Source of the DNA: Candidatus Binatia bacterium
GTDB taxonomy: Bacteria; Desulfobacterota; Binatia; HRBIN30
Length of the DNA stretch: 64,000 nucleotides
Assembly (NCBI GenBank): GCA_038245295.1
Contig: JBBRSP010000002.1
Location: 288,001 to 352,000, forward strand
Direction of reading: 5' to 3'
The translations under genes and the position numbers were made by a program. Below the pieces are notes generated by a model. The model did not search any database. It was given only the letters and a program-made list of their open reading frames with translations, and was not told where the DNA came from. Positions 8,006-59,030 of the stretch are shown piece by piece; position 1 is the first letter of the stretch, and every line of letters starts with the position of its first letter.

Positions 8006-8797
8006 ATGCAAGCAGGGTTGGACTACGAAGATCTCGCCAGCATTGACCACGTCGCCTTGGCCGAGATGGTCGACATTCCCCTTCTGGGGGCCGTCGCGGC
8101 GGGCAAGCCGTACAATGCCTTTGAAGTCGATGAATCGCTGAGTGTGCCGACCAGCCTGTGGGGTGGCAAACAAGTGTTCGCCCTGCGTGTGCGCGGTAGT
8201 TCGATGATCGATGAAGGCATCCACCACGGAGATTTTCTGATTGTCGAGCCGCGTGTTGCGGCCGAGAACGGGCAGACCGTCGTAGCCGAAGTCGACGGCG
8301 GTGTTACGGTCAAGAAATTCTTCCGCGAGGCCGACGGTTCAATCCGCCTGCAGCCGGCCAATCCGGAGATGTTGCCGCTTACTGTGCGTGCCGGATCGAT
8401 TCGCATCATTGGTATCGTGACAGGGGTGTTTCGTAAGTTCGCGCCGCGTCGGGTGGCGAGTCAGGAAGCCGAGCCAGCTCCCGCTGCTCCACCCGTTGTG
8501 GAAGCCAAACAAAGTGAGGAGCCGACACTCGATCTCGAAGTAAACGCGCTCGACAACGAAATCGAACGCTGGAAGGCAGCCATCACACACGCATCGGGCG
8601 ACCGCCACCTCAAAAAGCACGTGCCGCAGATGGCCGAGTTGCAACGCGATCTGCAGGCGCTGCGCGATTGGTGCGCCCGTACGAGCAAGGCAGGTTTGCG
8701 TCGCGCCCTACTGGCTGAAGCCAACAAGGTCATCCGCCGCATGCAACGTTTCGCCACGGTAACGCCGGTGCAGCTGCCGGATTCATTACTGCACTGA
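8006..8797 (+). CDS. LexA/UmuD-type S24 autopeptidase lacking the N-terminal HTH, with an extra C-terminal helical domain
   Basis: IPLLGAVAAG cleavage site, RVRGSSM (Ser), TVKK (Lys) and LQPAN motifs. Only ~23 aa precede IPLLG. GAGGAG RBS. Confidence 0.85.
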   Translation: MQAGLDYEDLASIDHVALAEMVDIPLLGAVAAGKPYNAFEVDESLSVPTSLWGGKQVFALRVRGSSMIDEGIHHGDFLIVEPRVAAENGQTVVAEVDGGVTVKKFFREADGSIRLQPANPEMLPLTVRAGSIRIIGIVTGVFRKFAPRRVASQEAEPAPAAPPVVEAKQSEEPTLDLEVNALDNEIERWKAAITHASGDRHLKKHVPQMAELQRDLQALRDWCARTSKAGLRRALLAEANKVIRRMQRFATVTPVQLPDSLLH

Positions 8798-13923: not shown

Positions 13924-15021
13924 CTATCGCAAGCGCCTCGACACAGTCAGTAGGCGGCGGGGCACCTGCAGCGCAGCCCCGATCAGGCTCGAAGAGCCCC
14001 AGCTTGTAGCCACTGCGGTGCCGAAAGCCGGCAAGGCTCGATAGCCGGCCCGGCGCCGCGCTTCGAACCAACATTGCGCCACGTTCGGTGTGACTCCCCA
14101 GTGCGAATTGCCGGCTCGATACCATAGCTCTCGAGCTTCACTCGTGCCGAGCCCAGGAGTCATGACCGCCGCAGCCTTGCTGACGTCGATGACAGGGCAG
14201 GTATCTCGTAGAACCCGTAAGGCCGTTGCCAGCAGTCCGCCAAACCGCCCCTGACGCGCCGTGCGCTGGACTTTCTCCCAGTCGATGCCGTCAGCATGGG
14301 GGCCGCGCAGAACGGCGCTGAGATCGGTAAGCCAGCGCAGGCCCGGGGTGCGATTCGACCACATTCCGTCGAGCACGATACGCATCAGCTCCGTCGAAGC
14401 AGCCGACACCTGTACCACCATCGACGCGAACTCAACGGCGAAACCGTCGGCTGTGTCGGTTGGCTTCCAAGGCAGACCCCATGCCAGAATGATCGGATTG
14501 CCTTCGCGATCACAAAAACGCAGCGACGTGAGCCGTTCAACGTGGGCGCGGCGCAAGCGAATGGGTGCCGCAAATCCCGCACCACTCAGGGTGGCAAATG
14601 CGTCGAGCGCCTGGCCAACCTCTACCCGCACGACGCTATCATCGATCAAGCGCGCGCCGAGGTCGGGAGCATGCGTCAGACTGATTGCCACCCCACCCGA
14701 CAGGGAAACATTGATCCCGGCGTCGCGCAGCAGCTCCACACATGACGACAGCCGGCGCAACGCGAGCTGATTGTGCGACCAATTGTAGCGATGCAGCCCC
14801 TTGAGCCGACCGAGCGACGCATCCGCCACCCCCTGGCGAATCAGGTTACGATAGACCCACGGCAGTAGATGGCGCGTCGCGGCGTCGACGTCGTCGATGC
14901 GATTCGCCCTGCTCCAGGCCTCCCACGCGTTGGCGGCTTGTTCGCCGGGCAGCGTCGCTGCAGCGAACAACTCACACTGGGCTGAGGTCGGCACTAGCCG
15001 ACCCAGATTCAGCTCATCCAT
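13924..15021 (-). CDS. NTP_transf_5-family nucleotidyltransferase paralogue with degenerate catalytic motifs
   Basis: Alignable by eye to the neighbouring gene (AWEAW..DDVD...LLPWVY; RWLTD..IDW), but LKG and DxD are replaced by SGG and DDSVV. Confidence 0.7.
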   Translation of the reverse strand: MDELNLGRLVPTSAQCELFAAATLPGEQAANAWEAWSRANRIDDVDAATRHLLPWVYRNLIRQGVADASLGRLKGLHRYNWSHNQLALRRLSSCVELLRDAGINVSLSGGVAISLTHAPDLGARLIDDSVVRVEVGQALDAFATLSGAGFAAPIRLRRAHVERLTSLRFCDREGNPIILAWGLPWKPTDTADGFAVEFASMVVQVSAASTELMRIVLDGMWSNRTPGLRWLTDLSAVLRGPHADGIDWEKVQRTARQGRFGGLLATALRVLRDTCPVIDVSKAAAVMTPGLGTSEARELWYRAGNSHWGVTPNVAQCWFEARRRAGYRALPAFGTAVATSWGSSSLIGAALQVPRRLLTVSRRLR

Positions 15022-15097
15022 GGATGGCCCACGGCCTTGCGAAGCCCACCCTTGGGCGGGCTCAGGACGAGAGGAAGGCTGCGCACCGACGAGAGCC

Positions 15098-16210
15098 TCA
15101 CATGGCAGCCCGGCGTCGACGCAGGGCGCGGCTCAAGATGGACCATAGGGTATCAGCTTCGGAGCGATCGAGAACATAGCGCCGGAAGCCGGCGACGCGC
15201 TCCAGCCATGAGCGGTCGGCGGCCAAGCGCCACCAGTTGAACCAGTAGCCGTGAAAATCACCGACGTAGCGACTACGCGGCAGCGTCGTGCGGACATAGT
15301 GTTCGAGGTGCTCCATTGGCGCAATTTTCACGGCGTCGAGTCGCGCCAGGACGGCACCCGGCACGGCAACTCCGACGTTCTTCCAGAGCCAGCGCAAGGC
15401 GTCGCGCATTGGGAGTACCAGGCGTAGCTGCTCGGTGGTCGCCAGCATACGCTGCCAGTCAAACGTTGCTGCATCACCGATGATGGCGTGCGCATCGCAT
15501 ACCCAGCGCAGGGGAGGTAGCTCACTCCATTTCACTCCGTGGACGATCACATGCAACAACATGTCGGCCGGATGCAGCCCCCACAAATGGCCTTCGTAAC
15601 CAGGTAGCGGGTGCACAGCCTGCCACAGCTCGTTTTCGCTGCCGGGCTGGCAGGTCTCGGGTAACAGATGCCAATGCAAGTCGATCGCGCGGTGCTGGGG
15701 ATCACTGAAGTTCATCGAGTTCATCGTGCGCAAGCGACGCGCCGATAGCTCGAACTCCGCAACCCAGCCCTGTCGTCGTACCGCCTCCACGGCGCGCGCC
15801 GCATCACCTTCGGGCACGAGCACATCGATGTCGCTCATAGGGCGCACCCCGGCGTCCTTGTAATACTCGATCACCAACGCTGCGCCTTTGAGGATTGCTA
15901 CCCGCACGCCCGCGTCGTGCAGCAGGCCGGCGACAACTTTGAGGTCGCGCAAGTGCATTTGCGTTTCGGCCCAGGTGCGGCGGTAGTGTTGCTTGATGGT
16001 ATCGTGCCAGAGGGGCTCCAGCAGCTCGGGCCGCCGCCGATAGATCAGCGGCAACAGACGCTCCGACGCCGGATCGAGCCCATCCAGATCAGCGCCGTGG
16101 TACCACTGTTGCCAGGCCAGAGCGCCGGGGGCCCCAGGCAGCAGCGCCGCGCGCAGCAGCAGAACTTGCCGTGGCATCGGCCAGCAGCCACCCGAGCTTT
16201 GACCCTTCAT
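15098..16210 (-). CDS. NTP_transf_5-family nucleotidyltransferase
   Basis: ILKGAAL..YY....RPMSDIDVLV, IDLHWHL, LLHVIVHG and RWVCD motifs. Confidence 0.88.
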   Translation of the reverse strand: MKGQSSGGCWPMPRQVLLLRAALLPGAPGALAWQQWYHGADLDGLDPASERLLPLIYRRRPELLEPLWHDTIKQHYRRTWAETQMHLRDLKVVAGLLHDAGVRVAILKGAALVIEYYKDAGVRPMSDIDVLVPEGDAARAVEAVRRQGWVAEFELSARRLRTMNSMNFSDPQHRAIDLHWHLLPETCQPGSENELWQAVHPLPGYEGHLWGLHPADMLLHVIVHGVKWSELPPLRWVCDAHAIIGDAATFDWQRMLATTEQLRLVLPMRDALRWLWKNVGVAVPGAVLARLDAVKIAPMEHLEHYVRTTLPRSRYVGDFHGYWFNWWRLAADRSWLERVAGFRRYVLDRSEADTLWSILSRALRRRRAAM

Positions 16211-16301
16211 TGCTTACGTATGACGCAGGCCCGACAGTCCGTGCAAGGTCTCGTTCGGCTTGACCCTGCCGCCGGTTCGATGGACTATTGCGTCCATCGT
16301 T

Positions 16302-17165
16302 ATGATCTCGGTTGTCACGCTACATCTTGAACGCGAACTTCATACGAGTAGATTTGTGGATCGACTCTATGAACACACGCGAATCCCGTTTGAGCTCATC
16401 CTCGTCAGTCAGGGGTCCGAGCCGCCGACCGTCGAATGGCTCAACCTCCTCCGTAAGGACCGGCCCAACTTTCACGTGATTCTCAACGATCGTAACGTCG
16501 GCACGGCGGTGGGCCGCAACCGGGGAATTCTTGCCGCCCAGGGAGAGTACGTGGTTGTCGTCGACAATGACGTCGAATTCACCGAACAATGGCTCGAGCC
16601 ACTGCTTGAAACGGCTCGCAACGATGAGTCGGTTGCATGCGTCGGTGCCATGATCCTGACACCGCAGGGGCGTCCACAATATTGCTCGCATTACACGGTG
16701 GAGCGCCAGCAAGCAGATGGGTTACGGTCGATCGGATTGCGCTTCGATCGTTGGTTCGCAGCAGACTCGCCGGAGATCGGCGCCGAGTGCGATGTCCCGT
16801 GGTATCCGACCACCTGCCTTCTGATACGGAAGGAGGCCTTCGACAGGGTTGGCGGGTTCGATGAGCGACTCTTTCTCGCTGAAGAAGACAAGGATTTGTG
16901 CCTGGCCTTGCGAAACTCCGGCTATCGCGTCGTCTTCAATCCGAGGTCACGCGTGGTTCACAATGGCTACCCTCGCGATCCTGGCTACGCCAAGCTCCGC
17001 GAGAACCTGCCGCTTCTGCATCGCGACAAGCGCTACTTCGAGCAGAAATGGTCCTGCGGCGTCATCAACGAATCATCGCGCACGTACCTGCTACAGAGCG
17101 GTATCTCGGAAGAGAGGCTGCAACAGTATGAGAAGTTCCCTCTCTTTATGAAGGTCGTCCCCTAA
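16302..17165 (+). CDS. GT2 glycosyltransferase
   Basis: NVGTAVGRNRG, VVVDND, VGGFDE...EEDKDLC and GYRVVF motifs. Confidence 0.88.
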   Translation: MISVVTLHLERELHTSRFVDRLYEHTRIPFELILVSQGSEPPTVEWLNLLRKDRPNFHVILNDRNVGTAVGRNRGILAAQGEYVVVVDNDVEFTEQWLEPLLETARNDESVACVGAMILTPQGRPQYCSHYTVERQQADGLRSIGLRFDRWFAADSPEIGAECDVPWYPTTCLLIRKEAFDRVGGFDERLFLAEEDKDLCLALRNSGYRVVFNPRSRVVHNGYPRDPGYAKLRENLPLLHRDKRYFEQKWSCGVINESSRTYLLQSGISEERLQQYEKFPLFMKVVP

Positions 17166-17167
17166 CG

Positions 17168-18196
17168 ATGCCGATGCACACCGAATTCAAGTGGAACAGG
17201 CTGCCCCGACCGCGGCAGTTGATCCTCACCGTGACGGATCGCTGCAATCACTTCTGCGACATGTGCTACTACCACGCGTCGCTCAACAAGAAGACCCAAC
17301 TGCTGTCCCTGGCCGAGTACGAGCGGCTCTCAGATCAACTGCAGCAGGTCGAGCTCCTGCTGATCTCGGGCGGTGAGCCGTTCCTGCGCAAGGATGTCAC
17401 CGAGATCATCGAGATTTTCTATCGCAACAACGGCACGCGCACCGTGTTCATTCCGTCAAACGGCTCGATGCCGGCGGAGATCTTCAAGGTTGTAAGAGCG
17501 ATGCTCAGTTGCATGCCGGAGTTGCAGCTCACCTTGATGATGTCTCTGGAGGGTCGGCGCGACGAGCACGACCGGATCCACGGCAAACTTGGTGCCTTCG
17601 ACTCGGTTATCGAGACGATTCGCCGGCTGACCGTGCTGCGTGTGCACCGCCACTTGCACCGCAAGCCACCACTTGGGGTGCTGCTCAACACGGTCGTCTC
17701 GAATCAGAACGTCGACCGCATCCTGCCACTGATGAGCTACGTCAAAGACCACGTGCCCGTCAGCTCACACACGTTCTCACCCATGCGTGGAGCGGGGCCG
17801 GTGGCGAGTTGCACGACGCCCTCGGCGGCACAGTTCGAGGCGCTCGTGCGCGACGCACAACCCTACTTCGAGCACTACCTTCAAAAGCAACCCGCCGCGA
17901 TGAAGGCCACCCTGGAGCGCTACGCATTGTGGATGGACCTGATCGGCGGCAAGGGCTTGCCGCATCAATGCCAGGCCGGGAATTACATCGGCGTCATCGA
18001 GCCAGACGGACGAGTTCGCCTCTGCGAGCTGACTCCGGTGATCGGTAACCTGCGCGAAGCCGACTTCGATTTCGAGAAGGTTTGGACATCGCCCGAGGCC
18101 AACGCGCTACGCCAGCAGATCATCAATTGTTCGTGCACCCACGCCTGCTTCATCAACGCGAGCCAGAAGTACTACTCCCTCAAGCTCGATGCGTGA
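17168..18196 (+). CDS. Radical SAM protein with Twitch/SPASM-like C-terminus
   Basis: CNHFCDMC, SGGEPF, and C-terminal CQAG...PDGRVRLCE...CSCTHAC. Confidence 0.9.
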   Translation: MPMHTEFKWNRLPRPRQLILTVTDRCNHFCDMCYYHASLNKKTQLLSLAEYERLSDQLQQVELLLISGGEPFLRKDVTEIIEIFYRNNGTRTVFIPSNGSMPAEIFKVVRAMLSCMPELQLTLMMSLEGRRDEHDRIHGKLGAFDSVIETIRRLTVLRVHRHLHRKPPLGVLLNTVVSNQNVDRILPLMSYVKDHVPVSSHTFSPMRGAGPVASCTTPSAAQFEALVRDAQPYFEHYLQKQPAAMKATLERYALWMDLIGGKGLPHQCQAGNYIGVIEPDGRVRLCELTPVIGNLREADFDFEKVWTSPEANALRQQIINCSCTHACFINASQKYYSLKLDA

Positions 18197-19268
18197 ACCC
18201 GAGTACGATCTTCGCAACCGTCGAGCTCACGTTGGTGGCGAGGTACTCGGCCGGCGGAGTCCACGCCGGGGGCTGAGCCAACGCCAGCCGCACGGCGTCG
18301 ACGATCGCACCGGGGTCGGCACCACTGAGGATGCTGCTGCCGGCTTCGACGGTTTCCGGCCGTTCAGTAACGTCGCGTAAGGTCACGTTGGGGACCTGGA
18401 ACAGGCAGCACTCTTCCTGCACCGTCCCCGAGTCGGAAAGCACGCAGCGGGCGTTTTGCTCGAGGCGGACGAAGTCAAACAGCCCGAGGGGCGAGACAGT
18501 CCGCACACCATCGGTGAATGCCTGGCCTTGCCTCAAGAGCTGCCCACGGGTGCGCGGATGTAAGCTGCAGACGATCGGCAGATCGTGCTCCGCAAGCAAA
18601 CGAGCCAAGCCGTCGATGAAACCAGCCAGGCGAAGCGGCACGTCGACGTTCTCGGCGCGATGCAGGGTCACCAGGAAGTAGCCGCCAGGCTCGAGCCCCA
18701 ACCGCCCCAAGATCGTGCTGGCGGCAATCTCTGCAGCATGATGAACCAGCACTTCATGGATTGGATTACCGACGACGAAAATGCGATCCGCGGCGCAGCC
18801 TTCGCGCAACAGGTTGGCGCGGCTGCGTTCGGTGTAGGGCAGCAAGACGTCGCTACAGTGGTCGATCACACGGCGATTGACCTCTTCGGGAACCCTATCA
18901 TCGTAGCAGCGATTGCCGGCCTCCATGTGGAAGACAGGAATTCCCATGCGCTTGGCGACCAGCGCGCAAAGCCCGCTATTGGTATCGCCCAGGATGAGGA
19001 GCCGATCCGGTTGCTCTTCCTGAAACAGACCCTCGCAAGCGCAGAGAATCTTGCCAATCTGCTCCATCGGCGTCGCCGAACGGCAATCGAGCTGGTGATC
19101 CGGGCGGCGCAACCGCAGCTCGTCGAAGAAGACATCGTGCAACGGGGGCTCGAAGTTCTGCCCGGTGTGGACGAGCACGTGGCGGCAGTGCTGATCCAGT
19201 AACGGCAGGATGCGGCTCAGACGGATGATCTCCGGCCGGGTACCGAGCACCGTCACAACCTTCATCAT
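18180..19268 (-). CDS. fnlC: Non-hydrolysing UDP-HexNAc 2-epimerase (FnlC/WbjD/WbvD type)
   Basis: GTRPEIIRLS, HTGQN, EAGNRCYD.RVPEEVNR, SDSGTVQEE and TERPE motifs. Confidence 0.88.
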   Translation of the reverse strand: MMKVVTVLGTRPEIIRLSRILPLLDQHCRHVLVHTGQNFEPPLHDVFFDELRLRRPDHQLDCRSATPMEQIGKILCACEGLFQEEQPDRLLILGDTNSGLCALVAKRMGIPVFHMEAGNRCYDDRVPEEVNRRVIDHCSDVLLPYTERSRANLLREGCAADRIFVVGNPIHEVLVHHAAEIAASTILGRLGLEPGGYFLVTLHRAENVDVPLRLAGFIDGLARLLAEHDLPIVCSLHPRTRGQLLRQGQAFTDGVRTVSPLGLFDFVRLEQNARCVLSDSGTVQEECCLFQVPNVTLRDVTERPETVEAGSSILSGADPGAIVDAVRLALAQPPAWTPPAEYLATNVSSTVAKIVLGFTHRA

Positions 19269-20326
19269 CGTAGGAGCTCCATCGGGTCAGGGACGGCGGC
19301 ACCGGTGAGAAGCCCGTGGCGTGTCAGCATTTGCCGCGTCTCTTCGAGGCTCATCGGCGCATCGTGTGAGCTGTATTCGCCGCCGAGCGCTAGACCTGGG
19401 CATTCGCGGCTCAGCTCGGGCAACAATGGTTGAATCGCCAGGTAGTCACCACGCACGAAGGTGCGAACGCCCTCCTCGGACGAGACCAGCAGCTCATGAA
19501 CCTTCTCGCCCGGACGAATCCCGGTGAACGTCAACGGGATATTGCGGTCGCCAATCAAGACGTGCGCCACGTCGAGGATGCGCGCCGACGGCACTCTGGG
19601 CACAAAGATCTCGCCGGCGGCGGCGTGCTCCACGGCGGCGACGATCGTGTCGACGGCGCATTCGAGGGGCAACAGGAAGCGCGTCATCTCCGCGGTGGTT
19701 ACCGTCAGCGGGCCACCGTCGCGGATCTGCTCGTGGAACAAGGGAATCACCGAGCCCCGAGACGCCAACACGTTGCCGTAGCGCACGCAGACAAAACGCG
19801 TCGTCGCAACCGTGATATTGGCGGTAATCAAGACCCGCTCTTGCAGTGCCTTGGTCATGCCCATCACATTGACCGGCTTACACGCTTTGTCGGTCGACAC
19901 TCCGACGACCACCGCGACGGGCCAATCATGCTCGCGGATGGCGCGCACGAGATTCTCAGCGCCACGCACGTTGGTTTCCACCGCCTCGAATGGGAAGTAC
20001 TCGCAGGCCGGAACCTGCTTGAGGGCCGCAGCATTGACCACCACATCGGCATGCCTGAGCACCGCACACACCGAGGCATAGTCACGGATATCACCGATGC
20101 GGAATTCCAGGACGCGCTCGAAGTTTTGGTAGATGGCCTCGTCGGTCACTGCCCGTCGATGCTGCAGCTCCAGACGCATGAGGTGCTGCTTCGCCTCGTC
20201 GCGCGAGAAGATGATCACCTTCCTCGGCCGGCCATGCGTGCCGCCGAGAAGCCGGCGCGCCAGAACCTTGCCCAACGAGCCGGTGCCGCCGGTGATCACC
20301 ACTGTCTTGTTTTCAAATAGCGACAT
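19265..20326 (-). CDS. fnlA: UDP-GlcNAc 4,6-dehydratase/epimerase (FnlA/CapE/WbvB type)
   Basis: TGGTGSLG, FSRDEAKQ, AAALKQVPACE, STDKA..PVNVMG and RYGNVLASRGSVIPLF motifs. Confidence 0.88.
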   Translation of the reverse strand: MSLFENKTVVITGGTGSLGKVLARRLLGGTHGRPRKVIIFSRDEAKQHLMRLELQHRRAVTDEAIYQNFERVLEFRIGDIRDYASVCAVLRHADVVVNAAALKQVPACEYFPFEAVETNVRGAENLVRAIREHDWPVAVVVGVSTDKACKPVNVMGMTKALQERVLITANITVATTRFVCVRYGNVLASRGSVIPLFHEQIRDGGPLTVTTAEMTRFLLPLECAVDTIVAAVEHAAAGEIFVPRVPSARILDVAHVLIGDRNIPLTFTGIRPGEKVHELLVSSEEGVRTFVRGDYLAIQPLLPELSRECPGLALGGEYSSHDAPMSLEETRQMLTRHGLLTGAAVPDPMELLR

Positions 20327-21236
20327 GCGCCTCCGCGGCAGACGTGAACTGCCGGCGCGGATAACGCGCTGCTGCGTCGGTCAACATCGCATCGATCAGT
20401 CGCGGCCACGGCGGCGGGCTGTAACCCGTGGCCGTGTTAAACCTGGTAGCGTCCAACGACCTGTCGATCGCCGGCCCGGGGGCAGCCATAATATCGATGC
20501 GTTTGCCGTAACGGTCGGCAATTAGTCGCAGCAGATCGAGTTTGGAGATCGGCTCGGCAGCGACGTGGTAAATTCCAACCAGGCCTGGGCTCGGGAGGAT
20601 GTGCTGGCTCAGTATGTGAGCGATCTCGACGGTGGGCAGACCCGAAAAGACGGAGCGGCGAAAGCCATCGACGCTTCCGCGGCACCCGAGGAACCACTCC
20701 AGGAGACCGTGGTTGGTATGCAGCTCATGACCAATGATCGAGGTTCGCAGCGTCAGGGCGCCGCCGTCCATGGGTTCGCCGAGGAGCTTGGAGCACCCGT
20801 AGCGGTCGGCCGGATCGGCAACGTCGGCCTCGCTGTAGTGACCCCTCGCGCCGGAAAATACGCAGTCGGTGCTGAAGTGAATCAAACGAATCCCGTGGCC
20901 GCTGCAGTGCTGCGCCAGGCGGTGCGGTAGAAGGGCGTTCGCCGTAATGAGCGCAAGCGGATCGTTGGCAGACCGCAGTTGCTTCACCATACCGATGCAG
21001 TTGATCAGTACGTCGGGGCGGACGCCGTCGAGTAGCTGCCGCATCGAGTCCTGGTCAGCGGCGTCCACGCCAGCATGGATGCGCGTCTGGAACGCCGGCG
21101 CGACGCGTTCCAAAAGGGCTTCCGGGCGGCGCAAGGCGGCGTGCGTCTCCAGTGCCGGCAGGCGCGATAGGATTTCGAACAACGTATGGCCCAACATGCC
21201 GGTGGCGCCGAGGATCAAGATCTTGGGAGTGCTCAT
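20313..21236 (-). CDS. RmlD-like NDP-4-keto-6-deoxy sugar reductase (WbvR type)
   Basis: GATGMLG, FSTDCVFSG, YGCSKLLGE, RTSIIGHEL and GLLEWFL motifs. Confidence 0.88.
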   Translation of the reverse strand: MSTPKILILGATGMLGHTLFEILSRLPALETHAALRRPEALLERVAPAFQTRIHAGVDAADQDSMRQLLDGVRPDVLINCIGMVKQLRSANDPLALITANALLPHRLAQHCSGHGIRLIHFSTDCVFSGARGHYSEADVADPADRYGCSKLLGEPMDGGALTLRTSIIGHELHTNHGLLEWFLGCRGSVDGFRRSVFSGLPTVEIAHILSQHILPSPGLVGIYHVAAEPISKLDLLRLIADRYGKRIDIMAAPGPAIDRSLDATRFNTATGYSPPPWPRLIDAMLTDAAARYPRRQFTSAAEAHVAI

Positions 21237-21294
21237 TGGAAACCCACGGTCGCTACAGCCCAGCTGATGCGATTGTCAAGCCGCGGTGCCGGGC

Positions 21295-22107
21295 CTACCG
21301 CCTCAATACGCGTTTCTGCAGCCACTGAAACTTGCGCACGATGGGCAAAACGAAGTTGAGCAGCCCGCTTGGCGCCAGAGCGTGGGCATCATCGCGCGGC
21401 AGATAGCCTAGATCGGCGCGCGTCGTCGTGATGTCGAGTCGCTTCAAGCAATTGTCGGAAACGCCGTGGTAGATGCCGAAGCGGAGGTCGTCCGGGGCGG
21501 CGATGGCGGCGTCCAGCAAGCCGATGAGGTCGTCATAGGTAAGTACCATGTTCAAGTGCTCCCCCGCCGGGGAGCGCTGCACGTCCCTGCGGTCCAGCAC
21601 CATTCCCAAGCGCAAGCAAATCACCGACAAGTTGGTTTGGTGTGCGTAGAAGCTGGCGAGCGCTTCACCGCACGCCTTGCTGGCGCCGTAGAGGGTGCTC
21701 GGACGTACCGGCCAGGTTGGTTCGACCGCTACGTCCGCCGGATACCCATCGACCGCTTGAATGCTGCTGGTAAAGATCACACGCCCACATCCGACGTCGC
21801 AGGCCGCCTGGAAGAGATTGTAGAGGCCGATGATGTTACTGGCGAGCAATCCCTCCCATGGTGTGAGCATCCCCGCGGCGCCGAGATGAAGGATGATATC
21901 GATGCCCTGACAGAGCTCGCGCGCCCGGGCCGCGTCGGCGAGGTCAGCTTGAACGAAGGGGAATCCATGGGTTTCGAGCAGCGGATTCACGTCGGTCAGC
22001 AGGAGGTCGTATCGCTCGGCATAGGCCGCGGCTACGACTCGGCCAAGGCGGCCCGACGCCCCGGTCAGGAGCATGCTCGGTTTCACCGCAGGGCCGTTCG
22101 TACTCAT
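21295..22107 (-). CDS. Extended SDR, uronate dehydrogenase/epimerase-like
   Basis: TGASGRLG, FTSS, YGASK and YHGVSDN motifs. ATG 22107 overlaps the upstream stop. Confidence 0.82.
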   Translation of the reverse strand: MSTNGPAVKPSMLLTGASGRLGRVVAAAYAERYDLLLTDVNPLLETHGFPFVQADLADAARARELCQGIDIILHLGAAGMLTPWEGLLASNIIGLYNLFQAACDVGCGRVIFTSSIQAVDGYPADVAVEPTWPVRPSTLYGASKACGEALASFYAHQTNLSVICLRLGMVLDRRDVQRSPAGEHLNMVLTYDDLIGLLDAAIAAPDDLRFGIYHGVSDNCLKRLDITTTRADLGYLPRDDAHALAPSGLLNFVLPIVRKFQWLQKRVLRR

Positions 22108-22853
22108 CGGCGCGGCAGGCTCGGCGGTGACACGACGTCGGCGGTTGTTGCGGCTTTGGCGTCGGTCGGTTGTTGGCGACGTCGCAGGAGAGCGGCACGG
22201 GCGATCCGGACGTAGTCCGTCTTGCTGTGGGATTCGCGCAGCGTCGTGTTGGCGCCATGGATTCTGCGGCGCAGCACGAGCTGCGGCAGGGTTGCGGTTC
22301 GCAGTCCCTGATCGAGTGCTCTCGCCTGCCAATCAATGAACTCGCCGATCCGCAAGCCGGGGTCGAAGAGACCGATGCGCGAGAACGAGGCGCGACGAAT
22401 CAACATCGCCGGTTTCATTTGAACCCTCAGCAGGCCTGCCGGGCACACCAGTTTTCGTCGACTCTCTGCATCGAGCTCTGGGCTGAGGAAGCACTCAACG
22501 GCGCCGAAGACGGCCTCGAGTTCGGGGTTGGCCTCAAGAACCGCCATCTGCAGAGTCAACTTTTCTGAAGTCCAAAGATCGTCGGCATCCAGGAAGGCGA
22601 GACACTCGCCGCGGGAGAGCTCAATGCCGTGATTCACCGCGGTGCTGATACCGCCATGAGGTTGGTAGTCGTAGCGCACTGCTGATCCAAACCCGCGTAC
22701 GACCTCGGCCGTGCGATCCGTGGATCCATCGTCGACCACGATGATGTCGAGCCGGCGATACGACTGTGCCAACACGCTGTCCAACGCTGCGCCGAGATAA
22801 CGGTCGGCGTTATAAGCAGGGATGACGACGCTAATGAGCAATGGTTCGCGCAT
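22104..22853 (-). CDS. GT2 (GT-A fold) glycosyltransferase
   Basis: ISVVIPAYN, VVDDGSTD and FLDADD motifs. Confidence 0.92.
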   Translation of the reverse strand: MREPLLISVVIPAYNADRYLGAALDSVLAQSYRRLDIIVVDDGSTDRTAEVVRGFGSAVRYDYQPHGGISTAVNHGIELSRGECLAFLDADDLWTSEKLTLQMAVLEANPELEAVFGAVECFLSPELDAESRRKLVCPAGLLRVQMKPAMLIRRASFSRIGLFDPGLRIGEFIDWQARALDQGLRTATLPQLVLRRRIHGANTTLRESHSKTDYVRIARAALLRRRQQPTDAKAATTADVVSPPSLPRR

Positions 22854-22856
22854 GAA

Positions 22857-23912
22857 TCAGGTTCCAGATAAGAACGCCCGGATCACCCGCGGGATTTGCT
22901 CCACCTCTGTTCCCACCTCGAGGCGATAACACGCTACCCGTCGCAGCAAGGCGCCGATCATCCGGAAGGCCGCTGGCGCCACTGCCGCCACTTGAAAGAT
23001 GTTACTCGGGATCAGCGCCTTAACGCCTGCCGTCGCCGAAGTAGGCTGCAGTCTCGTGTCGCGGCGTCCGGTCACGCATGGTAACAGGACCGCATGGATG
23101 GGCAGGTGGCCGACAATCTGTCCCTTCCAGACGTCGTGCAGAAGGAACAACGCTTTCTCACCGGCCTCTCGTTCGGGGTTACGCACATGTGGGAGAAAGA
23201 CCGGCAATAGCCGCAGACTGTCGTCGGTCAACTTTCCCGAACTGAACAGGCTCGACGCCTGAGGCGATGGCAAGGGCGAGAACAGGCAATAGTCGTCGCT
23301 GACGTACTTCATACCAGCGGCGAGGCAGGCAAGAGCGGATGTCGACTTACCCGCTCCACCGCCGCCTGCCAACAACACACCTCCCTCCGGTGTGCCGACA
23401 ACGCCGGCGTGCAGGACTTGCTGCCCGCGGACACAGACTAGACCTTGCAGGAAGAGCACAAATGGCGAGCCCCTCTCGGCCGCCGAAAGCCGATCTGGGT
23501 CGGCGACCCAGTAGAAACCAAGCCTTCGCGACATGTCCAATACGCTAAGCGTGTCGGTCGCTGCATTGAATACCACGGTGAAGGTTCCATCGCCGGCAGA
23601 AAACCCCTGCGCCAGCGAGAACCCGGCAGGAAACCACGACGACGGTGCGACGCGCAACCGGGAAGAAACGCTATCCCAAAGGCAGATCGTCAGATCCGGT
23701 GTCGACGCCAGGGTCGGTCGTGCAAGGTGCGCCAACGCCGGGGTAAGATGCGGGATCAGCGCGGTAGTGGCGAATTGCAGGCGGATATGGCTTCCGCCCA
23801 CTATGTAGTCGCGATTGGTGGGAGCGCCGGAAGACTTTGTCGCCTGTTGGAAAAGCTCGTGGGTTTCGGCGAGCAGCGTCCCGGAAAGATGCTTCTGGCT
23901 GTCCCTCTCCAT
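22857..23912 (-). CDS. HPr-kinase-like Ser kinase (lasso-peptide kinase type)
   Basis: LHAGVV, Walker A GGGGAGKST, and YVSDD. Start uncertain (23912 or 23978). Confidence 0.82.
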   Translation of the reverse strand: MERDSQKHLSGTLLAETHELFQQATKSSGAPTNRDYIVGGSHIRLQFATTALIPHLTPALAHLARPTLASTPDLTICLWDSVSSRLRVAPSSWFPAGFSLAQGFSAGDGTFTVVFNAATDTLSVLDMSRRLGFYWVADPDRLSAAERGSPFVLFLQGLVCVRGQQVLHAGVVGTPEGGVLLAGGGGAGKSTSALACLAAGMKYVSDDYCLFSPLPSPQASSLFSSGKLTDDSLRLLPVFLPHVRNPEREAGEKALFLLHDVWKGQIVGHLPIHAVLLPCVTGRRDTRLQPTSATAGVKALIPSNIFQVAAVAPAAFRMIGALLRRVACYRLEVGTEVEQIPRVIRAFLSGT

Positions 23913-23956
23913 AGTGCGGTGTTCCCGAACTGCGGCCAAATTGATGGGCGAACGAT

Positions 23957-24433
23957 CTAACTCTTGGACTTCGGCCAACCGGAATCGTCGACCTCATGAA
24001 TCGGATCGAGCAGAAGCAACTCCTGCATATCGGTGTACTTCTGCAACGTCGGAATCTCGAACGGTCGCTTGGCGGTCGTCTGGCGTGGTGCGGCAGCGTC
24101 GGGCGACGTGGCCGCACCACCTTCGTCTGCGTCTGTGGCTACGAGCACGATGCCTTCCCGTTCCAGTTCGCTGAGAAATGTGGAGGCCGCTTGCGCCATG
24201 GCAGCGCCATCACCTTCGAAGTGCTCGGCGAGGGCAGCCTCAATCTGGCGGCTCGTTGCCCCGTGCTCAACCGCACCGCAGATCGTCGCGCCGGTCGTGC
24301 CCAAACTGTAGTAGGTACCGCTTTCGAGATTGACGATGACCACTTCGTCCTCGAACGTTTCGAGGATGACCGTCGGGCTGTTCAATCGATAGCGGGACTG
24401 AGGAATTATTTGAGCCACCGTCTGCGAAACCAT
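23957..24433 (-). CDS. PqqD/RRE-domain protein with a leader-like C-terminal tail
   Basis: RRE pattern ETFEDEVVIVNLESGTYYSLGTTGATI...FLSELEREGIV, an Ala-rich linker, then FEIPTLQKYTDMQELLLLDPIHEVDDSGWPKSKS. Confidence 0.88.
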   Translation of the reverse strand: MVSQTVAQIIPQSRYRLNSPTVILETFEDEVVIVNLESGTYYSLGTTGATICGAVEHGATSRQIEAALAEHFEGDGAAMAQAASTFLSELEREGIVLVATDADEGGAATSPDAAAPRQTTAKRPFEIPTLQKYTDMQELLLLDPIHEVDDSGWPKSKS

Positions 24434-24468: not shown

Positions 24469-25596
24469 TCAGACTTGGCTTCGCGCAGACTTGGCGTCGC
24501 GGACACGCGCATACGCTCGCTCGTACATGCCGATCACCTGCGGCTGGATCACGGAATACTCCAGTCGCTCGCCGGTCGTCCGCATGTTGATCGCGGCCGC
24601 CCCATCGACCATGGCATCATCGGCTACGGCGCGCCGGATCGCTTCGGCGACTTGAGCCGGGTCATCCGGATCGACGAACAGAGCGGATTCTCCATCGGTC
24701 GCCCATTCATCCACACAGGCGGTCGGCGATTGGATGGGGAAGGCTCCCATCATCATGGCCTCCAGAAAGCTGTGGCTGATGCCATCACTGATCGAAAGGC
24801 CGATGGATACTCTGGCCCGGCCTTGCAGGGCGATCATCTTGTTGTGAGGCAGAAAGCGCGGCATCTCGACGTGCAGCCCGGTGTCGTTGGCCAGCAGCTC
24901 AGCGGCAATTCGTACATCCTGTCCGCCGGCCAGATAGACCACGATGCGGTAGCCCGGCAGCGCATCGGCGCACATCCGTAGGGCCTTGAGTCCCACCAGC
25001 GCCCGCCCGGCCCAACTCTGATAGCCTCTCAGCAGAATCATCCGGCGGGCGGACGTCGGGCCCGGCGGACAGAGGGCCTGCAGCTCTCGCACTCGATAGC
25101 CACCGCCCATGGGAACGACCGGCAACACGTCACCGGCGAACCCGCCGGAACGCGCCAGGGGTATGTCCCGATCACACTCGCAAACGTAGAATTGGCAGCC
25201 ACGCATCACCGCCTCGATGCGCGGGCGATGCTCCTTCAACCGCCCAAACAGGAAAAGGTCGCTGCCCCAGTTGCTGACGATCCACACGGGAAAGGCACCC
25301 GGCTCGAGGATGTCGCGGGCCGCCTGCGTCAGGTACCCGGCATGCTGGATTTCGAGCGAGTGAATGAAGTCGGGACGTATGACCTGAATGACAGCCGCCA
25401 GTCGTCGCGCCCGTTCACGCCAGGGTAACGACTGAGGTCCGCCCTCGTGAAGCGTAATGCTCGGCAACTGGCGCGCCTCCGGCGACAGTTCGTCCTCCAC
25501 AGGAAATACGTGCAGATCCCAGCCCAGCCCTTGCAACTGACTGATCCAGCGCTGAGTGTGGACGCTATTGGCCATCGCCACGAAGAGGATTTTCAT
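24469..25596 (-). CDS. GT4 glycosyltransferase
   Basis: ANSVHTQRW, WGSDL and SDGISHSFLEAM motifs. ATGA overlap with the upstream gene. Confidence 0.88.
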   Translation of the reverse strand: MKILFVAMANSVHTQRWISQLQGLGWDLHVFPVEDELSPEARQLPSITLHEGGPQSLPWRERARRLAAVIQVIRPDFIHSLEIQHAGYLTQAARDILEPGAFPVWIVSNWGSDLFLFGRLKEHRPRIEAVMRGCQFYVCECDRDIPLARSGGFAGDVLPVVPMGGGYRVRELQALCPPGPTSARRMILLRGYQSWAGRALVGLKALRMCADALPGYRIVVYLAGGQDVRIAAELLANDTGLHVEMPRFLPHNKMIALQGRARVSIGLSISDGISHSFLEAMMMGAFPIQSPTACVDEWATDGESALFVDPDDPAQVAEAIRRAVADDAMVDGAAAINMRTTGERLEYSVIQPQVIGMYERAYARVRDAKSARSQV

Positions 25597-26348
25597 GGCG
25601 CCACAACGAATGGCCACGCCCCTCCGGAAGCCCGATAGGCAGACCGGCCGGCACGCGCATTCGCCAATTTACGGATGAGCAGGCGCTGCGACTCCTCGAT
25701 GGCCGCGCAATCGGAGAAATGTGGATGGCGCAGATGGTGACCGACGACCCGCTCCGTGTAAACGGGGGATAAGCCCAGGCCTTGCGTCAGGCAGAGTGCA
25801 AACCACACGTCCTCGCTGCAGGGGCGCTCGAACTCCTCGTCGTTACCACCGGCGGCGTACAGATCTCGGCGCCACAGGCTGCCCAGGAAGAACAGCGGCC
25901 GCGGGCGCAGCGGGCCGGTATAGGTCATCAGGCCGCTGCCGACGCCAGCGTCGGGCTCGCAACACGGGTTGCCCTGCTCATCGGTGTTGATCACCGTGGC
26001 GATCAAGAAACACCCCGTCTGCAGATCCGTGACCAGGCGTTCGATAGCGTCCGGGCCTGCGTGCACGACGTCGTCGCTTTGACAAATGACCACATCACCT
26101 CGCGCCCGGCGGTAGGAAGCGTTGCGTGCCTTCGCCGGGTTGCGGTAGGAGGCGTCGGTTCGTTGCATCGAGTGGTAGATGACCGGGTAGCGGCGGCAGA
26201 CGCGGGCCGTTTCCTGATTGTTGCCGTCGTCAGCGACGATCACCTCGAAGTCGAAGCCTGGCTGCTGACAAAAGATGCTCTGGAGCACCCTATTCAGGTG
26301 GTCGGGCTTATCGTGCGTCGCCAGGCAAATGGAGCACGTCACCGGCAC
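25593..26348 (-). CDS. GT2 glycosyltransferase
   Basis: FEVIVADDG, ARN, QSDD and GGNDE...SEDVWF motifs. Confidence 0.85.
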   Translation of the reverse strand: MPVTCSICLATHDKPDHLNRVLQSIFCQQPGFDFEVIVADDGNNQETARVCRRYPVIYHSMQRTDASYRNPAKARNASYRRARGDVVICQSDDVVHAGPDAIERLVTDLQTGCFLIATVINTDEQGNPCCEPDAGVGSGLMTYTGPLRPRPLFFLGSLWRRDLYAAGGNDEEFERPCSEDVWFALCLTQGLGLSPVYTERVVGHHLRHPHFSDCAAIEESQRLLIRKLANARAGRSAYRASGGAWPFVVAP

Positions 26349-26432
26349 TTTCTCCGCACGCAGCAGGCTATCATGTGCGACGGCCGCGTGTCAGCCGAGC
26401 CAGGCCAGATGTTCTGCGACGCCACGTACACT

Positions 26433-27896
26433 TCAGTACGCCCCACGCCCGCGCAGCACGGCGCCGAGCGTGCGGACGAGGATCATGGCATCCATCCACA
26501 ACGACCAGTTGCGCACGTAGTACTCATCAAGCAGAACACGTTGTTCGAATGGCAGCTCATTGCGGCCGCTGACTTGCCATAAACCCGTCAGCCCCGGCCG
26601 CGCCCGCAATACCGTGTCGGCCGCTGCCCCCATACGATCCAGCTCGGCACCGAGGTAGGGGCGCGGGCCGACCAGACTCATCTCTCCCTTGATGACGTTC
26701 CAGAGCTGCGGCAGCTCGTCGAGGCTCCAGCGGCGCAAGACTCGTCCACTACGTGTGAGACGGGGATCATCCACTTTCAGCTTGGCGAACTGCGCCCAGT
26801 CGCGGTTGGCTTGCTCGTCGTTGGCCAGATGCGCCGTGAGCGACGCGTCGCTGCCGATACGCATCGTGCGCAGCTTCATACAAACGAACTCGCGGCGGCG
26901 GCGACCGAGGCGCGTCTGCCCGTAGAAAGCCGGGCCAGGTGAATCGAGGCGAATCGCCACGGCGAGAACCGCGACGATCGGCGCGACGATGGCGCCGATC
27001 GTCAGGCTCAAGGATACATCGAAGGCTCTCTTGATGGCGGAATTCCAAGGCTTCGCGAGGTTGCGCCGCAGGTGCAGGAGGAGTGTGCCGTTGACGTCCT
27101 CGGCCTCCACGCCAACCGTCGCCAAACCGACCAGATCAGGGACCAGTCGGATACTCTCGATCAGCCCTTCGCACGATTCGATCAGCCGCAACAGGCGTTG
27201 GCGCGGCAGTTGCGGGCTGGCAATCACCAGGTCCTTCACGCCGAGCGCGACGATATGAGCCGGCAATTCGTCGAGCGGACCGACAATCGGGATTCCATTG
27301 ATTTGCTGACCTATCAAAAGCGCGTCGTCGTCGATAAAGGCCGCCGTTTCGTAGCCAAGTACGCGGTCCGCCGTCAGATGTTGATAGACATCGCGACCGG
27401 TGGACCCGGCGCCGACGATGACGATGCGCTTGCGCAGCCAACCGGCACGCGCCAGCAGGCGTTTGGTCACCTGGCGCGCCAGCGGTATCAGCACCAACGA
27501 TGACAACCATGTCAAACCGATGACGACCCGCGACAGAGCCAGCTCAGGACGACCGGCGTAAGAAAGGACGATACTGAGAGCGGCACCAAAGGAAGTCGCG
27601 CGTATGCAGAGGCGCACGTCATCCCAGGCGCTCAGGCGGCGCGTGTAGAGGCCGCGTTGCGCGAAGGCAAAGGTCCACGGGAGAAAAAAGTATTGCCCGT
27701 AGAGGAAAGTCGAAAGCGGATCGACGGGCCCGATGCCCGGCGACAGACCTTCTAGGAGCTTAGCGCGCAGCAGCCACGCCAGTGTGACACAAACGAGAAG
27801 TGCCACCCAATCCGTGAGTAGCAAGCTGGCCACCGCAGCGGCCCGGCGCAACAGATCGGCGGCTGCGCCGCTTGATGACTGGCGCACAGAGCTCAC
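26433..27896 (-). CDS. wbaP: Undecaprenyl-phosphate hexose-1-phosphate transferase (WbaP/WcaJ type)
   Basis: N-terminal TM helices, IVGAG, KRAFD, KLRTM, DPRLT..G..LRRWSLDELPQL, MSLVGPRP and PGLTGLWQVSGR. Confidence 0.92.
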   Translation of the reverse strand: MSSVRQSSSGAAADLLRRAAAVASLLLTDWVALLVCVTLAWLLRAKLLEGLSPGIGPVDPLSTFLYGQYFFLPWTFAFAQRGLYTRRLSAWDDVRLCIRATSFGAALSIVLSYAGRPELALSRVVIGLTWLSSLVLIPLARQVTKRLLARAGWLRKRIVIVGAGSTGRDVYQHLTADRVLGYETAAFIDDDALLIGQQINGIPIVGPLDELPAHIVALGVKDLVIASPQLPRQRLLRLIESCEGLIESIRLVPDLVGLATVGVEAEDVNGTLLLHLRRNLAKPWNSAIKRAFDVSLSLTIGAIVAPIVAVLAVAIRLDSPGPAFYGQTRLGRRRREFVCMKLRTMRIGSDASLTAHLANDEQANRDWAQFAKLKVDDPRLTRSGRVLRRWSLDELPQLWNVIKGEMSLVGPRPYLGAELDRMGAAADTVLRARPGLTGLWQVSGRNELPFEQRVLLDEYYVRNWSLWMDAMILVRTLGAVLRGRGAY

Positions 27897-28556: not shown

Positions 28557-28775
28557 TCATTGTCCCTGTACGAGCGACAGAGGGCTCAATACGGTCCCCA
28601 GGATCGGGGTATGTTGCAGATCGCCGCCGGTCAGCACCTTGACCAGCGCGAAGACTGCCGCCGCCGCAGCAGCCTCCAAACCGACGGCGATCACTGCCAG
28701 CGGGATGCACCAGTACCCCAGGCGCCGATTCGGTGCGGGCAACAACGCGACGCACTGGCGTAGCGCCGCGAACAT
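28557..28775 (-). pseudogene. Probable N-terminal remnant of an ABC exporter (PglK/MsbA-like)
   Basis: MFAALRQCVALLPAPNRRLGYWCIPLAVIAVGLEAAAAAAVFALV resembles an elbow helix plus TM1, then stops after 72 aa. Confidence 0.5.
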
Positions 28776-28879
28776 GCACGTATCGGTGTTGCTGCTCATC
28801 AGCCGGGAAGAACAACACCCCGCGCCGAATGTTGCAAGCAGATGGCGACGATTCGCCAAGCATGGCATGAGAGTGCCCC

Positions 28880-30010
28880 ATGGTGTCACCTAGCCTGCGC
28901 ATCGGCTTCGACTTTTTCGGCGCCGGCAATGTCGGCGACGACCTGATGCTCGCCGGATTTCTCGACCTCGTCCCGGTGGGCGTCGTCATCCGCGGCGATC
29001 TGCCAGCCGATTCCATTCCACCCATGCGGGTACGTTTCCCGCGTGTCCAGTGGACCCCGCTACCTGCCGGAAAGCCAGATCCCGGTGAAGTGTGGATCGG
29101 CGCCGGCGGCACGCCATTCCAAGTCCTCAGCGGTAGGGGCGGCCTCACCCGTCTGCAGGCTGCCCTGCAAACCCACGGATTTGACTCCGCGCTGATGGTC
29201 GGTGTCGGTGCCGAGCGCGAAGCGCAGTCTGAGAAAGTACTCGGCAGAGCCATCGTGTCTCGCTTGGATTACATCTCAACCCGTGACCAGATGAGTGGCG
29301 ACCTGTTGGTCAACACTTTCGACGCCGCTCCAGCGACGATCAGCGTCGGCAGCGATTTGGCGAATGTGTTTCTGCAGCGCGCCAGCGAGTCGTCGTGGAA
29401 AAACACCACTCGTGCCGTGGCGGTCGGACTCAACTACTATGCCGAGCGCTTTGATCTGCGCACCCGTGCCGCGTTGGTGCGCTTCTTCCGCACGACGAGC
29501 CCGCGGCCGGCGGTCTTCCTCGCCAACGAGTTGCGCCCATTCAGGCATGCCGAGCTGGCGCTCTATCTCGGACATAGGCGGCTTTGGAATTTCTGGAATC
29601 GAGACGGCGTGGTACCCCTGGTGGCACCAAACTACATGGCTCCACAAGTCGACGATCTCGTTGCTCACCTGGCGCAGATCGGCACAGTGGTGGCGGCGCG
29701 TTATCATTGTTTACTGGCGGCGGCCTGGTACGGCTGCAAGGTCTGTGGAATTGCACGCTCGAGCAAGATCGAGCAGCTCTGCAAGGATCTCGACATCCCG
29801 TCGATCCGCATACCTGCGTCGGCTGCTGCGCTTGCCGCCGGCGTCGCTACAGCACGTGTGGTCGACCGCGAGCGGCTGCACAACCTGGCGACCCTGGCAC
29901 GGCGCGTCCACGGCGAAGTTGTCACACGTGCCCTGTCGATCCCTCCAGCCAACCTCGAGGCGCCACATTCCTACGGCGCCGGTGCGGGGGTTAAGACGGC
30001 GGGATCTTGA
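28880..30010 (+). CDS. Polysaccharide pyruvyl transferase family protein
   Basis: FFGAGNVGDDLM, ISTRDQMS, VGSDLA and ARYHCLLAA motifs. Confidence 0.85.
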   Translation: MVSPSLRIGFDFFGAGNVGDDLMLAGFLDLVPVGVVIRGDLPADSIPPMRVRFPRVQWTPLPAGKPDPGEVWIGAGGTPFQVLSGRGGLTRLQAALQTHGFDSALMVGVGAEREAQSEKVLGRAIVSRLDYISTRDQMSGDLLVNTFDAAPATISVGSDLANVFLQRASESSWKNTTRAVAVGLNYYAERFDLRTRAALVRFFRTTSPRPAVFLANELRPFRHAELALYLGHRRLWNFWNRDGVVPLVAPNYMAPQVDDLVAHLAQIGTVVAARYHCLLAAAWYGCKVCGIARSSKIEQLCKDLDIPSIRIPASAAALAAGVATARVVDRERLHNLATLARRVHGEVVTRALSIPPANLEAPHSYGAGAGVKTAGS

Positions 30011-31244: not shown

Positions 31245-31603
31245 GGTAACGGTCTCTGCCGGCCTAGGCTGGAATTGTATCCGCGCATACCCAGTTTGGT
31301 AAGAACCGGTTGGCCCAGACAAAGAGGAATGGCGTAGGGTTGATTGAACGGCGTTTTCTCGATCCAGAAACGGCGTCCGAGTTGCGGAGTGACGCTCCCG
31401 TGGGCCAGCAAGGGGGCGGCCTTCGCCGGGTCACGGCGGAAGCAAGGCAGGATCGCGTCGAAAAAGTGCGTCTCGCGCGGCAGCACCAGCAGGTCGGGAT
31501 GGGAGTCGAGGAGCGAGAGCATCAGCGGCGCCTCCGAGCGGGGAAATCCGGTGACGCATACGGGTGAACCGAGGATCTGGCGGCGAGCCGTGGAGGCGAG
31601 CAT
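31241..31603 (-). pseudogene. Degenerate, shortened sulfotransferase
   Basis: TGFPRSEAPLMLSLLDSHP (canonical PRSGTTLL), ETHFF and WIEKTP motifs in only 120 aa. Confidence 0.65.
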
Positions 31604-53172: not shown

Positions 53173-53185
53173 CAGCACGCCGGGC

Positions 53186-59029: not shown

Positions 59030-59030
59030 T

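Follow-up and report, generated by a model that had tools for sequence, protein, structure and literature searches.

Among the peptides made by ribosomes and modified after translation (RiPPs), the closest known system to the one studied here is that of the linear polyphosphorylated peptides (LPPs), encoded by the clusters lppA-K-B-S-D-N (Popov et al. 2026, PMC13381572), in which the precursor LppA is phosphorylated on Ser3, 18 residues past Tyr(-16). In the Bsf lasso cluster of Bradymonas sediminis (PMC10368454), a kinase assisted by a RiPP recognition element (RRE) likewise acts at core position 3, BsfA being phosphorylated on Ser3, 19 residues past Tyr(-17), and a nucleotidyltransferase gene is also present. 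Another site is used by the kinases PadeK, ThcoK, SyanK and PsmK, which act on the C-terminal Ser (PMC9266682), and PsmN requires its DxD motif to place a hexose on the phosphate (PMC6993621). What is more, LPP and lasso kinases add phosphate onto phosphate (PMC13381572, PMC9266682). These accounts, and the comparisons below, follow the available text of each paper. Here we describe a related gene cassette in a stretch of 64,000 nucleotides, hereafter the window, from Candidatus Binatia bacterium (assembly GCA_038245295.1, contig JBBRSP010000002.1, positions 288,001 to 352,000), where an RRE and a precursor-like tail are fused in a single protein. The fusion is conserved, it is linked to genes for an HprK-like kinase, family 2 glycosyltransferases (GT2) and NTP_transf_5 nucleotidyltransferases (NTases), it has no linked peptidase or cyclase, and it keeps an Asp, Asp143, in the register of the LPP acceptor. 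The cassette is genuine and widespread, and it appears to be an undescribed form of a RiPP tailoring module of known kind.

The RRE-tail protein (23957..24433, minus strand) has 158 amino acids (aa) and consists of a discrete-type RRE, a flexible linker and a fused leader/core-like tail. The RRE spans residues 14-97 (24143..24394, minus strand), and the PF05402 match covers residues 30-96 with E 2.4e-10. The conserved part of the tail, residues 125-154 (23972..24061, minus strand), holds in turn FxxPxL, Tyr133-x-Asp135-Met136, a hydrophobic helix, Asp143-Pro144, His146 and GWP; the codon of Asp143, which may be either an acceptor or a mimic of phosphoserine, lies at 24005..24007 (minus strand). 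The [Y/W]xxPxL-type leader motif of RRE binding is kept in the tails as F/Y/W-xx-P-x-L. An earlier reading of the window, made from the sequence alone and called here the sequence-only reading, had described this RRE, its Ala-rich linker and its leader-like tail, and all three are present with the tail as quoted. On the same strand follow the kinase (22857..23912 from ATG, in an open reading frame (ORF) running from TTG at 23978; PF07475 weak, TIGR04352 below cut-off) and a GT2 of the cassette type (22104..22853; PF00535). In the alignment the kinase keeps His168, Lys189, Asp206 and Asp207, which is the His-Lys-Asp-Asp motif of the lasso kinases (PMC9266682), and it matches the HprK P-loop only.

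Membership of the cassette was determined in two sets of related loci, in both of which a locus is denoted by L and a number. The tail-selected set comprises the best 80 of 554 confirmed stretches from a genome collection, picked by tail patterns, and the kinase-selected set the best 80 of 249 confirmed metagenome stretches; near-duplicates occur in the sets, and 80 loci are not 80 independent events. The cassette consists of the RRE-tail gene, an HprK-like kinase, GT2s, NTP_transf_5 and often an ABC exporter. In the tail-selected set the kinase is found in 72 of 80 loci, GT2 in 65, NTP_transf_5 in 55 and the ABC exporter in 21, and when only the 45 loci of at least 15 kb are counted the figures are 44, 43, 39 and 13, respectively; the kinase stands directly downstream of the RRE-tail gene in 59 of 80. 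As these loci had been chosen by tail patterns, the linkage test was repeated starting from the kinase. RRE and tail then occur in one frame in 65 of 80 loci, the tail is frame-shifted or next to the end of a contig in 5, a stand-alone RRE is found in 1, and neither is seen in 9, of which 7 have fewer than 100 bases upstream of the kinase (8 other rows on the kinase side were excluded from this count). Over all 160 related loci, close homologues (E < 1e-30) exist for the window GT2 in 118 (best 52%), for the neighbouring short-chain dehydrogenase/reductase (SDR) in 11 and for the first NTase in 59. Kinase and GT2 domains are fused in 7 loci. We estimate about 790 cassette stretches in the genome collection, in Cyanobacteria, Chloroflexota, Acidobacteriota, Nitrospirota, Actinomycetota, Bacteroidota and other phyla.

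In its composition the cassette resembles the tailoring half of the LPP and Bsf clusters, yet without peptidase, separate precursor or Ser3. With the LPP clusters it shares the discrete-type RRE, the HprK-like kinase, the NTP transferase, in part of the related loci an ABC exporter, the lack of a cyclase, the setting in polysaccharide loci, the YxxPx[V/L] leader motif and an acceptor register 18 past the aromatic residue of that motif. However, its precursor is fused to the RRE, Asp replaces Ser3, one to four GT2 genes are core members, and a jackhmmer search started from a single S24 protein, narrow enough for distant forms to escape it, found no LppS-like peptidase in any of the 80 tail-selected loci. 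Moreover, the cassette extends across many phyla and its tail is conserved to the end, whereas LPPs are called Bacillota-restricted and the LppA cores are variable (PMC13381572). The Bsf cluster differs by its separate precursor, B2 peptidase and cyclase and by an acceptor Ser at +19 (PMC10368454). PsmK, PsmN and PadeK (PMC6993621, PMC9266682) have in common with the cassette the His-Lys-Asp-Asp kinase and a DxD-bearing NTP_transf_5-type partner tied to hexose on phosphate; in pseudomycoidin and paeninodin, however, the acceptor is a C-terminal Ser, the peptide is cyclised to a lasso and the leader is removed, and none of these traits was found at the window locus. The sequence-only reading had taken these two as its model, but the LPP cluster with phosphorylation at core position 3 is closer (PMC13381572). 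The families HPr-rel-A (TIGR04352, TIGR04353) also have an HprK-like kinase next to a PqqD-like protein, but the scores here are 37.9 against a cut-off of 200 (TIGR04352) and 25.9 against 35 (TIGR04353), and the TIGR04353 model, with 74 positions, does not cover the tail. To our knowledge, HPr-rel-A has no known substrate. The words 'kinase' and 'nucleotidyl' are absent from the available text of PMC7470986, and in the article texts covered we found no account of a cassette of this kind whose RRE is fused to a precursor; the supplementary tables of the LPP paper could hold such loci.

The tail is more conserved than the domain that carries it. Among 672 candidates, 410 relatives of the RRE-tail protein were found at E <= 0.001, and in the 120 relatives listed residues 125-154 are conserved far above the RRE itself. 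Searched by itself, the 42-residue tail has matches at E <= 0.001 in 2053 representatives of clusters drawn at 50% identity, a number far above chance, and in a small sample a search with the RRE alone gave 9 matches among 55 candidates, of which 8 are tailed. Tail codons vary freely at synonymous positions (134 DNA copies), and therefore selection acts on the peptide, which rules out an RNA element or an overlapping frame as the cause. The sequence-only reading had proposed tail conservation as a check, and these matches together with the tight linkage to the kinase bear it out. Free-standing DPIH tails were also considered and set aside, as most of the short matches look by eye like cut fragments of RRE-tail proteins.

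Within the tail, a search pattern which left position 143 free gave Asp at that position in 65 of 65 kinase-selected tails (from 67 matches, two that fitted the pattern by chance were removed) and in 16 of 16 tails collected at the level of this genome's order; all 81 are Asp and Glu is never seen. The order-level search, in which 15 of 52 genomes match, brought to light another tail clade, which ends in DP[P] and lacks His146 and GWP, although the cassette is the same. Asp143 is retained there despite these losses, and the polar residues kept across the two clades are Asp135 and Asp143. His146, in contrast, is present in 65 of 65 kinase-selected tails but only in 5 of 16 order-level ones; its apparent invariance is partly built into the search patterns, and it was rejected as a universal acceptor since 11 of 16 order-level tails lack it.

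Several loci show the diversity of these proteins. The second clade, with an Asp-Pro-Pro-rich end and a late Trp, occurs in L196-L199, L205, L206, L208, L209, L214, L219 and L243; it has its own kinase clade and more genes of glycosyltransferase family 4 (GT4), and one genome, G351, has 6 matches to the RRE-tail profile. The window's genome itself carries a second, divergent cassette (L081, on G000:C59, 2400-7928) with kinase, GT2 and GT4, the NTP_transf_5 gene of which is broken by a TAG stop at 2658-2660; its RRE-tail protein of 136 aa belongs to another clade, with no Pro at the leader-motif position and with DPIH and GWP retained. In the same genome, a 439-aa ORF (L082, G000:C9, 9937-11256) has PqqD at its N-terminus as its sole Pfam match, with another PqqD-bearing frame 5.6 kb off.

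The sequence-only reading had noted that no cyclase, peptidase or separate precursor is visible at the locus, and the window region indeed contains none, a macrolactam cyclase included. In the whole genome, which is 96.57% complete, there is no match to the lasso B2 peptidase (PF13471), and for an LppS-type signal peptidase neither a TIGR02228 match over the cut-off nor a match to the peptidase alignment. Regarding the cyclase, for which that reading had suggested a genome-wide search, the strong PF00733 protein is a glutamine-type asparagine synthase, as it has a GATase domain, passes TIGR01536 and with a score of 167.7 stays well below the NF033535 cut-off of 525; a second, weak PF00733 match is also present. 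Other genomes are more varied: PF13471 is absent from 27 of 50 cassette genomes and matched somewhere in the other 23. At the loci themselves, B2 was found in 1 of 80 tail-selected loci (L053, a lasso cluster), 10 kb off on the other strand, and cyclase-like frames in none of the 80 by phmmer with one asparagine synthase, which distant forms may escape; the same query did recover such frames in 4 of 10 B2 loci. Two cassette records presented as whole chromosomes, L039 and L063, have no PF13471 match, and a crude scan of 45 loci gave no shared short ORF that could be a separate precursor.

The position of Asp143 is the link to the free precursors. It lies 18 residues past Phe125, and two LPP-like clusters from the same order, L203 and L202, have a stand-alone RRE and then a short ORF with a YxxPxL motif in the same register. 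The L203 precursor, preceded by a strong ribosome-binding site, has Ser-Pro at +18/+19; the L202 precursor has Tyr at +18; and both end 1 residue past the predicted acceptor. The L203 cluster also has an S24 peptidase, and its kinase, which matches the cassette profile at E 1e-112, falls together with the window kinase in a clade with a support of 99 by the Shimodaira-Hasegawa-like approximate likelihood ratio test (SH-aLRT) in a tree of 35 rows. A wider search over 53 S24-peptidase loci from 251 and 401 genomes found a close kinase in two of them, L281 and L279, the latter being a repeat of L203, but did not yield a further precursor beside such a kinase. Because this search added none, two published and two predicted precursors are the whole basis of the register argument.

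LPP-like clusters, with stand-alone RRE, short precursor, S24 peptidase, kinase and GT2-RRE fusion, were observed in relatives at L203 (4921-9311), L202 (5079-6380), L281, L142 and L215, outside the Bacillota range given in the available text of PMC13381572. Moreover, L258, L263, L272 and L274 have, near S24 peptidases, short ORFs in which a [Y/W]xxPx[L/V/I] motif is combined with a Cys-rich core, with distant HprK-like kinases in three and NTP_transf_5 genes in two; they possibly represent a further RiPP family.

Structural models were used to place the tail, its docking being judged from the predicted local distance difference test (pLDDT), DSSP and listed contacts. In the AlphaFold2 monomer, the fold of which is closest to the lasso B1 proteins TbiB1 and 6jx3, residues 121-130 have a pLDDT of 94, a strand runs at 130-133, and bridges are formed at 123-124 and 72-73, while the Ala-rich linker is of low confidence (pLDDT <50 at 103-111 and 113-116). 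The tail is thus predicted to pair in cis with the leader cleft of its own RRE, which is the outcome the sequence-only reading had looked for with AlphaFold, and its strand pattern fits the leader binding in the PbaB1 and LppB crystals (PMC13381572). For kinase and RRE-tail protein, the complex model scores 0.64 and the best of 3 controls 0.00; of 157 solved pairs 116 come up to this mark, and of 215 mismatched pairs 2, a calibration that is only rough for our own alignments and ligands. At least 36% of contacts are shared between the runs, with partner pLDDT of at least 72, and the confident contacts connect kinase residues 292-324, in the C-terminal helices, with the RRE sheet and with Tyr133, Asp135 and Met136. 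The kinase is therefore predicted by the model to dock on this sheet face and these three residues.

We tentatively favour the reading that the protein is a captured precursor left uncleaved. The tail would bind in cis in the leader cleft, the RRE-tail protein would recruit the neighbouring kinase, and Asp143, in the place of an LPP-type phosphoserine, would be presented to the kinase and phosphorylated, which would yield an aspartyl-phosphate anhydride by a chemistry akin to that of phosphate on phosphate. A PsmN-type NTase would be needed to put a hexose on the phosphate, and the GT2s could extend the sugar. In the absence of a peptidase the tail would not be released, and the whole protein might be either a phospho-glycosylated product or a reusable carrier for the surrounding surface-glycan locus. 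Phosphorylation of Asp143 is favoured because Glu is never seen there, because such kinases already make phosphate-on-phosphate anhydrides, and because no other peptide substrate is evident. A bolder and rather doubtful version is a RiPP module turned catalytic carrier, in which the precursor was fused, the peptidase lost and Ser replaced by Asp, with a labile aspartyl sugar-phosphate being handed to the surface glycan and the carrier regenerated.

A number of points weigh against this reading. Only two predicted free precursors agree with the register, and in the Tyr-bearing L202 the kinase lies across a contig break; precursor candidates next to distant kinases have no Ser at +18. The approximately unbiased (AU) test does not reject the tailed kinases as a separate clade (p 0.238), and therefore no direction of evolution is claimed. 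In the monomer model residues 141-158 have a pLDDT of about 60, and Asp135 and Asp143 each sit just before a short helix, where helix capping may explain both in this clade; in the complex model Asp143 is missing from the confident contacts. Aspartyl (acyl) phosphates are labile. At the window locus, furthermore, no cassette-type ABC exporter was recognised (an MsbA-like exporter occurs in 21 of 80 related loci), and the locus has its own lipid-priming WbaP. Finally, LppK refuses Thr or Tyr in place of Ser3, and such kinases can thus be Ser-strict (PMC13381572).

The last point is also part of the case for the main alternative, which we regard as possible though less probable: the tail is never modified, Asp143 mimics phosphoserine, and the loaded protein is a scaffold which holds kinase, NTase and GT2 while they act on another acceptor, for example a surface glycan. 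In its favour, the tail has no universal hydroxyl residue, the confident model contacts are docking contacts only, kinase-GT2 fusions exist, the cassette stands among glycosyltransferases and at the window within a WbaP locus, and non-catalytic partners are common, as 24 of 94 NTases lack DxD. However, a mimic ought to tolerate Glu, yet all 81 tails have Asp; and since close kinases stand beside free precursors with Ser at +18, the residue in this register probably reaches the active site, which a permanent occupant would block. RiPP enzymology would gain something new from either reading, if true: from the one, an HprK-like kinase that acts on Asp, and from the other, an RRE scaffold naturally loaded with a leader. 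As RRE and candidate substrate form one protein, reconstitution should need no more than four or five genes, which makes testable both the role of the PF14907 enzymes (PsmN, LppN, BsfN) and the question why such kinase modules occupy polysaccharide loci.

That the tail is a substrate with its acceptor elsewhere, at Thr134, Tyr133, Ser151 or His146 according to clade, appears unlikely. Ser or Thr does occur at position 134 in 318 of 352 rows and at 151 in 205 of 352, and His146 is fixed in the kinase-selected tails; nevertheless, of the 16 order-level tails 9 have Arg at position 134 and only 5 have His146, position 133 is Phe in 45 of 352 rows, and residues 133-136 are modelled as docking contacts on the C-terminal helices of the kinase, which speaks against an acceptor there.

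It is very improbable that a lasso or LPP cluster at another place in the genome supplies a separate precursor for the cassette to tailor. Such a source would be in line with the PF13471 matches in 23 of 50 cassette genomes, the lasso cluster 10 kb off in L053 and the incompleteness of assemblies, but the window's genome has neither PF13471 nor a TIGR02228 match over the cut-off, its strong PF00733 protein is not a lasso cyclase, and both the whole-chromosome records and the crude scan for short ORFs mentioned above were negative. Least probable of all, and rejected as a candidate, is phosphate transfer to the C-terminal Ser as in paeninodin and pseudomycoidin, which has the precedent of PadeK, ThcoK, SyanK and PsmK (PMC9266682) and the terminal Ser of the window copy on its side, whereas that residue is Ser in only 8 of 120 relatives listed and 28 of 351 in a larger set, 2 to 23 variable residues come after GWP, 157 of 352 rows have no Ser from Asp143 onward, and the paralogue in this genome ends in Lys. 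Of the RRE-precursor fusion in a lasso-type tailoring module proposed by the sequence-only reading, the fusion, its conservation, its kinase linkage and its register with free precursors stand, while the C-terminal Ser acceptor falls.

The two NTP_transf_5 genes of the window lie further along the minus strand, as that reading had said, and both match PF14907, but it mentioned neither the plus-strand genes in between nor the lack of DxD in the second protein. Protein 1 (15098..16210, minus strand; E 1.4e-36) is a core cassette gene displaced from the RRE-kinase run; it has an intact DxD and groups with the cassette NTases. A sequence search for solved relatives found none; its Pol-beta-like fold was aligned by VIA-align to MenT1 with Z 13.7 (root-mean-square deviation (rmsd) 3.3, 182 aligned residues) and to ANT(2'') with Z 10.7 (rmsd 3.6, 162 aligned), while the match to an FKRP-like fold is weak (Z 6.9, rmsd 4.1, 148 aligned). 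Protein 2 (13924..15021, minus strand; E 9.3e-12), in which the DxD metal motif is degenerate, is one of the 24 among 94 family members without DxD and is likely non-catalytic. Intact and degenerate genes are paired in 10 loci, namely the window (13924-16210) and L005, L006, L007, L008, L010, L018, L044, L078 and L133, a recurrence which suggests, at the level of sequence, an enzyme with a pseudo-enzyme partner.

The rest of the locus belongs largely to its host. The kinase, GT2, SDR and sugar genes follow the RRE gene on the minus strand, as the sequence-only reading had said. The extended SDR/epimerase (21295..22107; PF01370), whose start overlaps the GT2 stop, is an accessory cassette member. 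The next three genes (18180..21236, minus strand), for an RmlD-like reductase, a 4,6-dehydratase and a UDP-GlcNAc 2-epimerase, had been counted as part of the machinery, a view that does not hold, as they have E < 1e-30 matches in 0, 0 and 1 of the 160 related loci. A plus-strand pair (16260..18196), a GT2 at 16260-17165 and a radical SAM/SPASM protein at 17168-18196, breaks the minus-strand run and parts the NTP_transf_5 genes from the RRE-kinase genes; it is not part of the cassette core and has close homologues in 1 of 160 loci. Upstream of the RRE gene lie genes for a WbaP-type priming transferase, which scores over the cut-off of TIGR03022, and for a GT4 and a GT2 (together 24469..27896, minus strand), which place it within a surface-glycan locus and which are not conserved among the 160 loci. 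On these counts the host locus, and not the cassette, is taken to own the three sugar-nucleotide genes, the pair with the radical SAM protein and the glycosyltransferases on the flank. A promoter and terminator scan gave results at chance level.

The plus-strand pair recurs in L181 (161-2139), where the two proteins are 58% and 67% identical to the window GT2 and radical SAM protein; the pair is 5 kb from a cassette-type kinase, and no RRE lies within 12 kb. Elsewhere in the window, two ORFs on the minus strand are apparent remnants: one of 110 aa (28557-28889), with no Pfam match, resembles by eye an exporter N-terminus, and one of 120 aa (31241-31603) has a weak sulfotransferase match (E 0.003). 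A 663-aa ORF (43237-45228, plus strand) has no Pfam match. At 50833-63908 (minus strand), a PBP1C-like gene stands beside a bacterial alpha-2-macroglobulin, an ordinary arrangement, and before them is a 1625-aa ORF with a PPC match only. Finally, the ORF at 8006-8797 (plus strand) appears by eye to have a LexA-type peptidase domain and, after a linker, some 90 additional aa of helical character at its C-terminus.

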